From: Escherichia coli
GTDB lineage: Bacteria > Pseudomonadota > Gammaproteobacteria > Enterobacterales > Enterobacteriaceae
Length of the DNA: 64,000 bases
Assembly (NCBI RefSeq): GCF_030013595.1
Contig: NZ_CP122772.1
Direction: 5' to 3' (one strand)
The notes below the pieces were generated by a model. It saw nothing but the letters and a program-made list of their open reading frames with translations. It made no database searches and was not told where the DNA came from. Shown one piece after another: positions 1-45,722 of this stretch. Within the stretch, counting starts at the first letter, position 1. Each line of letters begins with the position of its first letter. The position numbers were made by a program, and so were the translations under genes.

Positions 1-1254
1 GTGTCAGGGGGGCTGCTGACGCCGTCCTACCGTAATCAGCTGGCGTTCCTTGATATCTACGGGGACGGGATGGGCAACACCAACTACAACATGGCGGTGA
101 CCGGCACTTCCGGAGCCGGTAAAACCGGTCTGGTTCAGCCTATTCTGCGCAGCGTGCTGGACTCCGGTGGTATCGCCTGGGTGTTTGACATGGGGGACGG
201 CTACAAGTCGTTCTGTGAGAACGTCGGCGGGACATACCTGGACGGCAAGTCACTCAAATTCAACCCGTTTGCCAATATTTCCAACATCAATGAATCCGGG
301 GAACGTATCCGCGATCAGCTGGCGGTACTGGCCAGCCCCAACGGGACGCTGGATGAAGTCCACCACAGCCTGCTGTTGCGCGGGGTTCAGGAGGCCTGGG
401 AAGAACATAAGGAAAAAGCCCGTATTGACCATGTTGTCCAGAAGCTGACGGCTATTCGCGAGCATGATAAATACCAGAAGTCGCCGGGTATCACCAACCG
501 GCTGGATGAGATTATCGAACTACTCGGGAAGTACTGCTCCTGGGGGATTTACGGCGAATATTTCAACAGCAACGAGCCGTCACTGACTGACGATGCCCGC
601 TTTATCGTCCTGGAGCTGGGCGGCCTGCAGGACAAGCCTGATCTGCTGGTTGCGGTGATGTTCTCCCTCATCATCTACATCGAGGACAAGATGTACCGCA
701 CGCCGCGCAGCCTGAAGAAGTGCTGCACCATCGACGAAGGCTGGAAGCTGCTCAACTTCAAAAATGAGAAGGTCGGTCAGTTCATTGAGACCGGCTACCG
801 CACTGTGCGACGTCACCGTGGCGCGTTCATCACCATAAGTCAGAACATCAAGGACTTTGATGCCGATGATGCCTCCGGCGCAGCAAAAGCAGCCTGGGGT
901 AACTCTGCCTTCAAGGTGGTTCTCAAGCAGGATGCGTCGGAATTCAAACAGTACAACCAGAACCGCCCCAACCAGTTCAGTGAGCTGGAGCGCAGCGTTA
1001 TCTCCAAATTCGGGGATGCCAAAGACCAGTGGTTCTCCTCCTTTATGCTGCGCATCAACGATACCTGCAGTTTCCATCGTCTCTTTGTCGATCCGCTCAG
1101 TCGCGCGATGTTCAGTTCAAAGGGCGATGACTTCGAATTTATCCGCCAGTGCCGGGAACAGAACATGGATATCCATGACGCCGTCTACCTGCTGGCACAA
1201 CGCAACTTCCCTGATGAGATGCGCGAACTGGAAGCGCTTGCGGAGGCAGCATGA
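1..1254 (+). CDS. traC: TraC conjugative ATPase (VirB4-like), C-terminal ~417 aa; 5' end lies outside the window
   Basis: Frame open from base 1; translation resembles the F TraC C-terminal region; followed by trbI-traW-traU in F order. Confidence 0.85.
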   Translation: MSGGLLTPSYRNQLAFLDIYGDGMGNTNYNMAVTGTSGAGKTGLVQPILRSVLDSGGIAWVFDMGDGYKSFCENVGGTYLDGKSLKFNPFANISNINESGERIRDQLAVLASPNGTLDEVHHSLLLRGVQEAWEEHKEKARIDHVVQKLTAIREHDKYQKSPGITNRLDEIIELLGKYCSWGIYGEYFNSNEPSLTDDARFIVLELGGLQDKPDLLVAVMFSLIIYIEDKMYRTPRSLKKCCTIDEGWKLLNFKNEKVGQFIETGYRTVRRHRGAFITISQNIKDFDADDASGAAKAAWGNSAFKVVLKQDASEFKQYNQNRPNQFSELERSVISKFGDAKDQWFSSFMLRINDTCSFHRLFVDPLSRAMFSSKGDDFEFIRQCREQNMDIHDAVYLLAQRNFPDEMRELEALAEAA

Positions 1255-29200: not shown

Positions 29201-29622
29201 ATAACTACCTGAAAGACAATGACATTATCTTTTTTTATAACGGTAATTCCAGACCATGACAAGCCGCAGCCGCCAGGCTGCCTACTCGATTCTCTCGTAG
29301 AATGTGTCGTCTGGCTGAACGAAAAAACCGCCTTGGTGGGCGGTTTTTCAAAGGTTTATGGAGTTGGCGCTCGTTGAACCGAGGTAACTGGCTTGGAGGA
29401 GCGCAGCCTCCAAAATAACCTGAATGTCCAAATGGGACAGAGATTATGTAACTGAGGGATTTACTAGCGTTGTTAGAAAGGTGGCTTATCAGGAGATCTA
29501 TAAAAATGCAAAAGCCCAGTTTTTCAACTGGGCTTCGCGGTCCCTCAAGGGGAGAAAATCTGAATGGCCTCTATGGGCTACACAGCTAGTTTAACAAATC
29601 AGTAGGTTGTGTCAACAGTAAA

Positions 29623-30885: not shown

Positions 30886-30981
30886 TCAGTCGATGAACTG
30901 GCGAATCAGTTCCAGAATTGCAATCAGCGCGTTCGCAACGGCGACTACAGCCCTGAGAACGATGATTAACAGATTAATCAT
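30886..30981 (-). CDS. DinQ-like small hydrophobic type I toxin candidate (31 aa: MINLLIIVLRAVVAVANALIAILELIRQFID)
   Basis: Short ORF with GGAG RBS 6 nt upstream, single predicted TM helix, hairpin plus T-run immediately downstream on the minus strand; paralog at 43621..43704. Confidence 0.4.
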   Translation of the reverse strand: MINLLIIVLRAVVAVANALIAILELIRQFID

Positions 30982-31291
30982 CCGTTTCTCCAGTAAAACT
31001 GGAGGAAATCACCGTTGCTTACTCATACACTGCCTGTCACAACGGCTCTCTCGCATTGTTAGGTGTAGAGTGACCTCCTCCTGCCAGAGCACCGAATACA
31101 GCACCACCTGTTTATCCAGCCAGGACTTTAAAATCGTTCATACCCGCAGATACGGGAAGAGCAGGATTACAAGCCAACTACATGACTAACTGACTGATTA
31201 TACGCTACACAAAACACCCGTTACACAACTAAATGTGGTTCCTTAACCACATTTAGTTGCTTTACAGCACCATAGTGAATAAAATGTAAAC

Positions 31292-31380
31292 GTTAGGTGT
31301 AGAGTAACCTTCTCCGGTCAGAGCCACCAACTCAAGGCCGGAAAGCACAAAAAAGCCCGATTACCAGTCGGGCTTTTTTG
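31292..31380 (+). ncRNA. Conserved two-hairpin RNA module A (stem-loop plus bidirectional terminator); sRNA or 3' terminator cassette
   Basis: tccgg/ccgga stem with conserved loop (cagagccaccaactcaag) followed by terminator aaaaaagcccgattaccagtcgggctttttt; related copies at 31950..32018 and 43801..43870 with compensatory stem changes. Confidence 0.4.
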
Positions 31381-31433: not shown

Positions 31434-31865
31434 TTATTTGGATTCGACGTTAATATCTACACAGAGGAATTTGTATTCAGGATTGTTTATTTCAAAATGT
31501 ACTTTATGCTCACCATCAGGAAATAGATTTGGATTACGTTTACCAATTGAACGAATTATTTCGTTAACTTTTTCCTTAATAAGATCGCGTGATAAATCCT
31601 CATTAAAATCTTCTTTTTTTATTCCCGGAATTATTTCCTTATAAAAATCTTTGATTATTTCCCCTCCTATATTTACTTCATAATCAAAAGATATCTGTAG
31701 AGGTCCAGACATGGTTAGTGTTTTCTTCATTGTTGTCTCTCCCGTGTTGAAATCTAATCCTTGCACTGTACAGTGCAATACATCTAAAGCCCGTACATTA
31801 TTAGGCTTTAGATGTATCAAAGTTATTTTACTAGATAATTGATTTTTATCAACCATGCCCAACAA
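31434..31865 (-). CDS. hypothetical protein (start uncertain; possibly the internal MKKTLTMSGPLQ... start)
   Basis: AT-rich ORF ending just upstream of RNA module A, which would serve as its terminator. Confidence 0.4.
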   Translation of the reverse strand: MLGMVDKNQLSSKITLIHLKPNNVRALDVLHCTVQGLDFNTGETTMKKTLTMSGPLQISFDYEVNIGGEIIKDFYKEIIPGIKKEDFNEDLSRDLIKEKVNEIIRSIGKRNPNLFPDGEHKVHFEINNPEYKFLCVDINVESK

Positions 31866-31949
31866 ACATTCAAAGTATAACCAGATAAGCTGGCTTTTGA
31901 CATAGCCAACTATCTGACTTACTATATAAACGCTGGATATTGAGATTCA

Positions 31950-32018
31950 TTCTCCGGTCAGACAATCAACTCAGAACCGGAAAGCAAAAAGCCCGATTAT
32001 CAGTCGGGCTTTTTTTTG
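31950..32018 (+). ncRNA. Conserved two-hairpin RNA module B
   Basis: tccggt...accgga stem with conserved loop core (caatcaactcag) plus terminator aaaaagcccgattatcagtcgggcttttttt. Confidence 0.4.
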
Positions 32019-43466: not shown

Positions 43467-43620
43467 AGGAGTAGGGGGCTAATATACCTGCAAGGCAGGA
43501 TATTAACTCAGGAGATTGGGTGTGTGGTGTTTAGTCAATGCATTTGAATATTGTAACTAAAATATGTTTTTATTAAAGGCCGGAGGTGGTTAGCCCCCGG
43601 CCTTAGTTACGTTTCCGCCA

Positions 43621-43704
43621 TCAGCCCATCAACTGGAGAAGGTAGCGAATCAGTTCAAGAAGTGAGATTAGTGCCCCCAGAACGATGATTGCTTTATCAA
43701 TCAT
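43621..43704 (-). CDS. DinQ-like small type I toxin candidate (27 aa: MIDKAIIVLGALISLLELIRYLLQLMG)
   Basis: Closely resembles my recollection of E. coli DinQ; hairpin plus T-run downstream on the minus strand; 5' leader region shared with the paralog at 30886..30981. Confidence 0.5.
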   Translation of the reverse strand: MIDKAIIVLGALISLLELIRYLLQLMG

Positions 43705-43800
43705 CCGTTTACTCCATTATATGGAGCAGACTCCCGATACTTACTCTTACACTGCCTGTCATATCGGTTGTTCTTCGGTGTTGGTTGAAGACAGTTCCAC

Positions 43801-43870
43801 TCCAGCCAGAGCCACCAACTCAGGGCTGGAAAACACAAAAAAGCCCGATTACCCGTCGGTTTTTTTTTGT
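43801..43870 (+). ncRNA. Conserved two-hairpin RNA module C
   Basis: ccagcc...ggctgg stem with the same loop core as module A (cagagccaccaactcag) and a degenerate terminator. Confidence 0.35.
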
Positions 43871-44489
43871 GCCTGTCGTTTGGCTGTACTTCCGTTTTTT
43901 CCCCTTCATTTGAGGGATTTTTCTTTCATTTTTTGTTGCAGTCAATACCGCTGATCGCGTTGGCCAACAGAACGATGCCGTTACCGGCATTATCATGAAT
44001 CCCATTTTTTCAGTAAGTTGCAGCATACAAAGTAATTAAAAAAACGTCATTTTTTGTTGATGGATGCAGTAGCGGTGGTGTGCTACGTGAAATCTGGGAA
44101 ATGCTGGCGGGTAAGTGACTCAATTTTTAATCTCCGCACCTGTTTTTTTGGACGTGCCAGCAATTATGACCTGAAGCAGAGGTGCGTCCGACAACAAAAA
44201 TTCCGATCACCAGAAAAAATTTTGGACATTTTTTCCGATAATGCATTTTTGTCCAGGGGGATATGAACTACAGGGCAGGGCGAAAAGGAAGCGGTTATCT
44301 TGATCGATAGGAATTTAAATCCCAAAAAGATTAAAAAAACACCCAAAAACGGATGTTTATTCGACACTGCCTGCGTGCCATGAGTGCACCGCCATCAATT
44401 AAATGGATCTTATCGAGTGATACTGTATATCACTGATGGTTTTTTACTCCATTCCCCTGAAAATGGACGCAACTTCCCCGATGCGGCTC

Positions 44490-45722
44490 TCAGCCGCACA
44501 CCCGCTGTTGCGCCAGTGGCTCATGCATCAGGACCAGCTCTGTCAGACGGTAGCCCCGCTTCAGCCCCGTAAAACGCATCTGACATCCGCACAGGATGCA
44601 CTTTAGCGGGTCAACCTTCAGTAACCGCTGATACATCCCTCTCCACCTGATTTGCATCGCCGTCTTTCTCACCGTCTCCGTTATGACGTACACAACATCT
44701 TCCAGTAACCGGCGCTTTACCGGACTCAGGAAACCGTAGTACCTCACCATACGGAACCCCTTATCCGCCACATGCCAGGAGAACCTTTCCATAAACTCAT
44801 CACCACTCATCACCAGGTATTCTTCCCGTTTTGTCCGGTGACTGTTGTAACGCAGACCAATTTCATCCTGACCAGCATAGTGCTCCAGACGGCTCATCGG
44901 CACCGGCGGTTTTTTCAGGTAAGAGCCGAAGTACACCGCCACATGTGTGGCGTTATCCATCACCCGGGATACGTTGACATTCCAGCCCCGCCGGTAATGA
45001 CTGTCCAGGAAGCGATTCCAGTCCCGTCTGCTGCTTCCTTCAACTGCCAGCGCATCCGGTATCACCAGCTCCGGGTATTTTCGTGACAGTAACCACGTTA
45101 TCCTGTAACGCCACATGCTCATCACCTTACGGGCGTAAAAATGAAGGTTTTTCCAGGTGTGGTCTGGTGTCACGCCGCCGGCCGTTGTCGACAGGTGAAT
45201 GTGCGGATGCCACTGCTGGTCACGTCCCCATGTGTGGATGACCGTGAATATCCCCGGCACCACATCTGCCTGGCGGCAGATTTCCTGTATCACATCCGCA
45301 GCAATGCGGCTCATCTCTGCCAGTAACCACCGGTTGTGGAACACCAGGGACCAGTACTGGCAGGGAAGTGTGAACACAATATGCTGCCACGGACAGTCGG
45401 GAACCAGACTCAGCAGATACTGTATCCACTGTGCGCCAGCCTTCACTCCGCAGTGCGGGCAGGAGCGACTTTTACACCGGAAGCAGACCTTTTTTGTGTG
45501 GCAACAGTCCGGAGATGAACAGCACCACTGTGTGTACCCCATCAGCGTGGTTCCGCACGCCATGATTTTTGTCACCGACTCAATGACTACCGGACGCACT
45601 GAACCTTCCGGTTGTTTCTCCAGCCAGTTAAGCCAGCGGTTTCCCTGCTGAAAAATGTCGGCAAAACGGGGAAGCATCAGAAGGGCGGGGGGACTCCGTC
45701 CGGCCAGTGAACCGTGCCACAC
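44490..45722 (-). CDS. tnpA: IS91-family rolling-circle transposase (TnpA), variant
   Basis: 410-aa ORF, similar but not identical to the copy 1/2 TnpA. Confidence 0.8.
   Translation of the reverse strand: MWHGSLAGRSPPALLMLPRFADIFQQGNRWLNWLEKQPEGSVRPVVIESVTKIMACGTTLMGYTQWCCSSPDCCHTKKVCFRCKSRSCPHCGVKAGAQWIQYLLSLVPDCPWQHIVFTLPCQYWSLVFHNRWLLAEMSRIAADVIQEICRQADVVPGIFTVIHTWGRDQQWHPHIHLSTTAGGVTPDHTWKNLHFYARKVMSMWRYRITWLLSRKYPELVIPDALAVEGSSRRDWNRFLDSHYRRGWNVNVSRVMDNATHVAVYFGSYLKKPPVPMSRLEHYAGQDEIGLRYNSHRTKREEYLVMSGDEFMERFSWHVADKGFRMVRYYGFLSPVKRRLLEDVVYVITETVRKTAMQIRWRGMYQRLLKVDPLKCILCGCQMRFTGLKRGYRLTELVLMHEPLAQQRVCG

Follow-up and report, generated by a model that had tools for sequence, protein, structure and literature searches.

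A 27-codon open reading frame beside a resolvase gene on an Escherichia coli plasmid raises the question of whether a toxin gene of the DinQ type is here part of a working, antisense RNA-controlled pair or is what remains of one. The window (the whole 64,000-nucleotide stretch that was analysed) carries two diverged loci of this kind, referred to below as copy 1 and copy 2. Copy 2 is the locus in question, and the original prediction held that it has a maintained function, for example in post-segregational killing. The features identified are collected in Table 1.

Table 1. Features of copy 2, copy 1 and their surroundings, in window positions.
Feature	Position	Strand	Description
Stem-loop at dinQ terminator position	43578..43602	-	ggccgggggctaaccacctccggcc, then UUU AAUAAAAA; positional homologue of the K-12 dinQ terminator (alignment with K-12 and copy 1)
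dinQ ORF (copy 2)	43621..43704	-	27 aa, ATG start, MIDKAIIVLGALISLLELIRYLLQLMG; single predicted transmembrane helix
SD hairpin	43712..43726	-	ctccatataatggag; SD GGAG at 43712..43715
Leader elements 3 and 4	43712..43733	-	Homology to K-12 U167-U178 and A182-G187 (PMC5066626); element-3 equivalent gagtctgctccat
Conserved DinQ/Dql leader motif	43741..43763	-	atgacaggcagtgtaagagtaag; invariant in the K-12/copy 1/copy 2 alignment and in all IncX alleles
AgrB target repeat (element 2 region)	43780..43812	-	gctctggctggagtggaactgtcttcaaccaac; doubles as 5' end of the hybrid agrB
Hybrid AgrB-homologous antisense RNA gene	43781..43868	+	Rfam RF02891, 70.1 bits against a gathering score of 40, E=7e-10
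Sigma-70-like site TTGACT-17-AAAAAT	43917..43945	-	10.9 bits (PWM); only promoter-grade candidate upstream
IS91-family transposase gene	44490..45722	-	Same strand as dinQ, ~620 bp upstream of the locus
dqlB ORF (copy 1)	30886..30981	-	31 aa; NF041473, 72.4 bits, cut-off 35
Copy 1 AgrB-type genes	31293..31380 and 31933..32017	+	Rfam RF02891; good promoters
AS-pc02	22593..22759	-	Rfam match
CopA (IncFII copy-number control)	24693..24783	-	Rfam match
RNAI (ColE1-type)	29319..29418	-	Rfam match

Identity of the toxin gene and its antisense RNA

The copy 2 peptide is, by family membership, a type I membrane toxin of the DinQ family. It scored 55.5 bits (E=4.9e-15) with the curated NCBIfam equivalog model NF041472 toxin_DinQ, which has a cut-off of 30, and reached 14.3 bits with the DqlB model, below the cut-off of 35 for that model. 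An alignment with K-12 DinQ taken from the chromosome (L001 1021..1104; MIDKAIIVLGALIALLELIRFLLQLLN) gave identity at 23 of the 27 residues, and the resemblance to E. coli DinQ that the original prediction had proposed was therefore essentially right. A short single transmembrane helix and a polar patch of Glu17, Arg20 and Gln24 have been described as traits of DinQ toxins (PMC3567139). Toxicity and depolarisation of the inner membrane upon expression are further hallmarks of such a toxin. The residues E17, R20 and Q24 are conserved in copy 2, which thus has each of the family traits that were tested: the HMM score, the single helix and the polar patch. A search of the ORFs in the 64-kb window gave no other of this type.

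The RNA module that had been pointed out ahead of the toxin gene proved to be an AgrB homologue, so that an AgrB-family antisense RNA gene lies beside the toxin gene at copy 2. This RNA gene is a hybrid: its 3' two-thirds (43813..43868), comprising stem-loop 1 and the terminator, come from agrB, and its 5' third consists of dinQ leader sequence in reverse complement. Chance similarity is ruled out as the source of the DinQ and AgrB matches. An 89-aa ORF on the plus strand (43685..43954) overlaps the dinQ leader and AgrB, and its equivalent is labelled 'hypothetical protein' in several RefSeq IncX1 plasmids (e.g. L005 1596..1907). This ORF probably reflects mis-annotation across the antisense RNA gene.

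The dinQ gene of copy 2 is already known and annotated and is not new. The 901 bp around the ORF matched 826 PLSDB plasmids at 90-100% identity, with the ORF annotated as 'dinQ: damage-inducible type I toxin DinQ', and the identical protein WP_000565612.1 was annotated dinQ in every IncX1 RefSeq record examined. The dinQ-like (dql) family, with chromosomal and plasmid members, was defined in 2016 (PMC5066626), and DqlB-agrB was shown experimentally in 2025 to be a plasmid addiction module on pOXA-48 (PMC12365149) and on the IncX3 plasmid pOXA-484 (PMC12317039). A literature search on IncX1 dinQ and on dinQ in B2 strains returned nothing relevant; a survey of a B2 strain termed its dinQ locus 'conserved' and left the deletion described below unmentioned (PMC7232551), and no report of a fused agrB::dinQ state was found in the literature. 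The sole new element, and a modest one, is the recurrent deletion that joins the antitoxin gene to its target.

Layout of intact loci and the deletion in copy 2

Read on the dinQ-sense strand, the K-12 locus consists of agrB, agrA, the dinQ promoter with its LexA operators, the 5' leader, the ~32-nt AgrB target, the gtgacaggcagtg motif, the SD hairpin, the ORF and the terminator. The conserved 5' UTR contains four interacting elements that pair as 1:2, 2:3 and 3:4, and element 1 is the lock that keeps the primary dinQ transcript untranslatable. On the K-12 mRNA element 1 occupies U16-C28, the AgrB site G88-A119, element 2 G94-G106 and element 3 U167-U178, and element 4 contains the SD at A182-G187 (PMC5066626). 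The +1 placement used here reproduced these published coordinates exactly. The K-12 layout of agrB, divergent promoters, 5' leader, target and ORF was also found in the reference plasmids pEC213_3 (IncX1; L003, NZ_CP061104) and pJARS35 (IncX7; L004, NC_015054), and p12519B (NZ_CP041175) is another full-length example. In the full-length plasmid loci PagrB reads TTGCAT-17-TATTAT, the -10 of PdinQ is TATAAT followed by a conserved GTTRG start, and the leader carries ACTCCAGCC as the equivalent of element 1.

Aligned with pEC213_3, copy 2 was the same locus without ~187 bp between two ~32-nt direct repeats, one being the 5' end of agrB and the other the target. The divergent orientation of agrB means that what is RNA complementarity to the target is present in the DNA as direct repeats, which flank both promoters. 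Missing with the segment are both the agrB promoter and the toxin promoter, together with ~85-90 nt at the start of the leader that include element 1. The junction is at the upstream edge of the target repeat (~43806..43815), and copy 2 retains the leader-side repeat variants, which places the crossover at the left edge. The AgrB segment of copy 2 sits directly on the leader target and departs from the non-overlapping layout that is a defining trait of the family (PMC8594479), and at the position of the agr promoters there is nothing but dinQ leader in reverse complement. Of the leader elements, 2, 3 and 4 are kept, whereas element 1 has been lost along with the promoter and the +1 site, leaving neither an own promoter nor the complete set of four elements.

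A leader in common with copy 1 had been proposed, and this was upheld for the 3' ~100 nt, which include the target repeat, the gtgacaggcagtg motif and the SD hairpin, and failed for the 5' segment, which is absent. The absent segment (AAGTCCTGG..GGTGGTGC) is common to K-12, copy 1 and the full-length IncX loci, and in the alignment with K-12 and copy 1 it was also delimited as AAAGTCCTGG..GGTGGTGC. As for the proposed hairpin and T-run behind the ORF, the hairpin is present at the position of the K-12 terminator and was kept in all IncX1/IncX7 alleles aligned, though it was not called by a generic terminator scan, and in place of a T-run there is merely UUU and then AAUAAAAA, as in K-12. In the lineage of the window a C-to-A change has made the stem of the agrB terminator less stable (-7.9 instead of -14.6 kcal/mol), a minor indication that constraint on the antitoxin remnant has eased.

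Promoters and LexA operators

A negative result for copy 2 from a generic promoter scan was discarded as the same scan misses the mapped K-12 agrA and agrB promoters (8/12 consensus matches), and a calibrated PWM was used in its place for this reason. The sigma-70 PWM scores the -35, the spacer and the -10 by consensus frequencies; the scores serve for ranking only, and non-canonical promoters would be missed. Six genuine or homologous agr promoters, whose -10 ends 8 nt ahead of the AgrB 5' end, scored 8.0-13.6 bits; for random 62-nt stretches of the window the best scores had a median of 2.9 bits. The homologous position scored 2.7 bits both in copy 2 and in another fused allele, and no counterpart of the constitutive sigma-70 promoter that antitoxins of this family have was found above background with the PWM at or around this position of copy 2. 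In every full locus the toxin -10 TATAAT precedes the repeat by 92-101 nt, and copy 2 has nothing equivalent. The one TATAAT that copy 2 has on the downstream side of the agrB terminator forms the loop of the SD hairpin, and its 6.8 bits do not rise above background.

No LexA operator (CTG-N10-CAG) was found near copy 2 or in the full-length plasmid promoters by a search that recovered the K-12 control operator. The plasmid dinQ/dqlB promoter regions without a LexA-box-like site were L003 1700..1900, L004 1700..1940 and window positions 31090..31300. LexA control of the plasmid dinQ/dqlB genes was rejected as no operator is present in the sequence, and for want of an operator 'damage-inducible' on the plasmid genes is taken as a name inherited from the HMM.

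Fused alleles among plasmids and metagenomes

A sample of PLSDB, drawn as evenly spaced megablast matches, contained 31 fused alleles (matched in a single piece), 5 full alleles (two pieces over 497 bp) and 6 for which the match ended at the repeat, one representative of the last (L008) being a full allele. The fused share in IncX1 was about 74% by this sample, and in line with it ~90 plasmids hold the inter-repeat segment. A metagenome scan returned 8 fused alleles, 5 full, 1 probably full and 1 otherwise truncated, or 8 fused among 14 classifiable.

The fused IncX1 alleles fell into two junction groups. Group A (the window, L006, L007, L011, L016, L018 and L019) carries the leader-side repeat variants with the crossover at the left edge, and group B (L005, L009, L017, L020 and L023-25) the agrB-side variants with the crossover at the right edge. 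The two groups lie on different flanking haplotypes, each nearest to another full allele, and the deletion therefore occurred at least twice in IncX1.

The ORF was annotated as intact in all 31 sampled fused PLSDB alleles, and the three substitutions private to fused IncX1 lineages were all synonymous. Among the eight fused metagenome alleles one had a transposon-split ORF and one an I2L change, and one probable full allele had G10R. The split ORF, a sign of relaxed constraint, was that of L025 (SKEO01005775.1), in which the fused dinQ ORF is interrupted after codon 4 by a 38-bp terminal inverted repeat (GGGGGAACCGCAGAATTCGGAAAAAATCGTACGCTAAG). This repeat resembles what we take to be an end of the Tn1721/Tn21 family. 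A comparison of ORF decay between fused and full alleles has low power with an 84-nt ORF at <=5% divergence, and the data are too few to separate neutrality from selection.

The same collapse on chromosomes and an IncI plasmid

The fused sequence was also matched in a single piece by some E. coli chromosomes. In the E. coli strains FDAARGOS_1251 and AVS0542 the gor-proximal dinQ had one AgrB match (91.6 bits) directly on the leader, and no LexA operators, 5' leader or second agr gene were present at these loci; the DinQ protein of FDAARGOS_1251 is that of K-12. The K-12 inter-repeat segment was found in 4,610 of 5,426 complete E. coli genomes, leaving 816 without it, and the fused chromosomal junction was matched at >=99% in 840 records including Nissle 1917, from which about 15% of sequenced E. 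coli are fused. The chromosomal fused loci have lost the LexA-controlled promoter and one agr gene and have an intact DinQ ORF. Such loci were located at L027 (NZ_CP069445.1 3138099-3140160) 921..1164, in L028 and in Nissle 1917 at NZ_CP022686.1 ~2390378-2390518.

On the IncI plasmid L029 (NZ_CP135666.1, 856..1112) AgrB is fused directly onto the leader of dqlB, a rare state found in at most 42 of ~1,200 related IncI-type plasmids. The PWM gave no promoter-grade site at the agr position of the chromosomal and IncI fused alleles. At least four independent origins of the fusion can be counted: two in IncX1, one on the E. coli chromosome and one in IncI dqlB.

Copy 1 and plasmid context

The second, diverged family member that had been placed 12.6 kb away was recovered as a dqlB gene ~12.7 kb from copy 2. 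Copy 1 is a DqlB locus with the full layout and its own -10 TATAAT. Its distal agr gene pairs with the dqlB target at -23 kcal/mol, against -57, and is agrA-like on account of this poor pairing. A 143-aa ORF (31434..31865, minus strand) is situated between the two agr genes. The AgrB RNAs of copy 1 were considered as cognate antitoxins of copy 2 and rejected since their variable 5' target segments differ; the apparent strong duplex of a copy 1 agr RNA with copy 2 arises only because the fusion has placed the conserved AgrB core beside the target.

The adjacency of a resolvase gene to copy 2 was confirmed as part of a parA(MipZ)-resolvase-dinQ block that belongs to the IncX1/IncX7 backbone. The AS-pc02, CopA and RNAI matches together with this IncX1 block show that the window comes from a multi-replicon cointegrate plasmid. 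The presence of two copies had been taken to suggest a maintained function, and this is not supported, as they are not duplicates kept by selection in one plasmid: one is a DinQ and the other a DqlB, brought from different backbones that were joined in the multi-replicon plasmid. Close relatives of the window plasmid carry F18 fimbriae and hemolysin genes (pU90-5). The IncX1 backbone is interrupted upstream of copy 2 by the IS91-family transposase gene, a possible source of read-through.

Proposed history of copy 2 and alternative readings

We consider it somewhat probable (about 0.6), judging from sequence, that copy 2 is a disarmed DinQ/AgrB module made transcriptionally silent by the loss of both promoters and carried along with the IncX1 backbone block. 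In an intact locus AgrB is transcribed divergently from upstream and its 5' ~32 nt pair with the target in the dinQ 5' UTR. Recombination or slippage between the direct repeats removed ~187 bp in a single event, taking together PagrB, PdinQ and the leader from +1 to ~+87, with the element-1 lock and the processing region. The deletion left the toxin ORF intact along with its SD hairpin, and also spared the AgrB target, the dinQ terminator, and the body and terminator of agrB, which now lie directly antisense on the leader. As neither promoter is present we infer that copy 2 is most likely transcriptionally silent, in which case the module would hitchhike with the parA-resolvase block and make no contribution to post-segregational killing. 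Removal of both promoters in one step is a non-lethal way of losing such a module.

The intact ORFs, the restriction of changes to synonymous ones and the fused majority fit recent deletions with hitchhiking, or some retained function. A rather unlikely version of the latter is that the fused locus is expressed weakly from upstream, with a 5' extension antisense to the whole AgrB core, and is checked in a new way. Transcription would start at the 43945..43917 site or come as read-through from the IS91 transposase gene past the weak reverse-complemented agrB terminator, and translation of the mRNA would be blocked by the SD hairpin together with other AgrB-family RNAs (from copy 1 or the chromosomal agrA/agrB), or the mRNA would titrate these RNAs. 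The TTGACT-17-AAAAAT site, at 10.9 bits, is located upstream of the reverse-complemented agrB terminator, which in the lineage of the window is weakened from -9.0 to -7.3 kcal/mol, and both facts speak for such transcription. However, the good -35 of this site is specific to the lineage of the window, since the other fused alleles share the weak TTGG.. of the full alleles and the segment is wholly replaced in L019, while the chromosomal and IncI fused alleles have unrelated upstream sequence without a good site. A compensatory upstream promoter across fused alleles was therefore rejected.

Checking by RNAs encoded elsewhere would agree with the pairing of K-12 agrB, agrA and the proximal agr of copy 1 with the fused target at -50 to -54 kcal/mol, compared with -57 to -60 for cognate pairs, although these duplex energies overstate the accessible pairing because the AgrB core is locked in a stem-loop. 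Folding was of little help here: predicted SD accessibility was 0.08 for the K-12 transcript from +1 and 0.22 from +44, every plasmid construct was predicted closed including the full-length controls, and the active and inactive controls were not separated. The intact ORFs and synonymous-only changes of the sampled alleles, the high frequency of fused alleles and the occurrence of a major E. coli lineage fused with an intact ORF also speak for weak expression.

It is improbable that copy 2 is an intact type I pair, kept by selection, whose post-segregational killing stabilises the plasmid in the manner of hok/sok or DqlB-agrB. Its peptide and antisense RNA are true family members, the sister DqlB-agrB is a proven addiction module (PMC12365149, PMC12317039), and the locus lies within a maintenance block, between parA and the resolvase gene. 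But relative to the full-length IncX1 alleles both promoters are deleted together with the first ~85-90 nt of the leader, the segment on which the known regulation depends, and the defining non-overlapping layout of the family is violated (PMC8594479). Killing needs a stable toxin mRNA and a continuously transcribed, unstable antitoxin, and copy 2 has no promoter for the latter, which disfavours this reading and, with it, the maintained function of the original prediction. An assembly artefact behind the fused layout, or a chance ORF, for which only the small ORF size and the short repeats could be cited, is hardly credible. HMM and covariance-model scores are far above their thresholds, sequencing reads are longer than the ~32-nt repeats, hundreds of plasmids that were finished independently and 8 metagenome contigs carry the fused sequence in identical form, and ~840 complete E. 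coli chromosomes show a separate fusion event.

A more general proposal about the fusion, which we hold tentatively, is that it goes beyond decay and is a recurrent state of DinQ-family loci, selected or mutationally driven, acting as a built-in non-lethal off-switch or as a functional cis-antisense form. The at least four independent firings, the fused majority in IncX1, near-fixation in the Nissle 1917 lineage and the preserved ORF would be consistent with it.

Comparison with known systems

Copy 2 shares with K-12 dinQ-agrAB (PMC3567139, PMC5066626) the 27-aa toxin, the AgrB RNA, elements 2-4, the SD hairpin, the gtgacaggcagtg motif and the terminator hairpin. In contrast to K-12 it is plasmid-borne, starts with ATG rather than GTG and is without the LexA operators, the toxin promoter, the leader from +1 to ~+87 (with the element-1 lock and the +44 processing site) and agrA, and its agrB is promoterless and overlaps the leader instead of lying upstream. 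The closest relatives are the full-length IncX1/IncX7 dinQ-agrB loci, which have the same parA-resolvase neighbourhood, 3' part of the leader, agrB body and terminators, with an identical protein in the IncX1 alleles, but keep the ~187-bp segment of divergent promoters and element-1 leader that copy 2 has lost.

DqlB-agrB, found on pOXA-48 and pOXA-484 and as copy 1, belongs to the same toxin/leader/AgrB superfamily on plasmids and is a functional model of the probable role of the intact IncX1 locus. It represents the other subfamily (31 aa, NF041473), with trans-acting agrB genes that have their own promoters and with killing on plasmid loss, whereas copy 2 has neither promoter. The hok/sok system resembles copy 2 superficially in that an antisense RNA gene overlaps the leader of the toxin mRNA, and the two have no sequence relationship. 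In hok/sok each gene is driven by a promoter of its own, that of Sok being strong and located within the hok leader, while the overlap in copy 2 is a by-product of deletion and no promoter was detected there by the PWM.

Implications

About 70% of IncX1 'dinQ' alleles, copy 2 included, are without both promoters, which the label 'damage-inducible type I toxin DinQ' conceals, and surveys that take toxin-antitoxin genes for stability functions will overcount. The recurrent collapse points to a general way in which type I modules that are divergent and trans-encoded may be lost without killing the host; tisB/istR, zor/orz and shoB/ohsC have the same geometry as dinQ/agrB.
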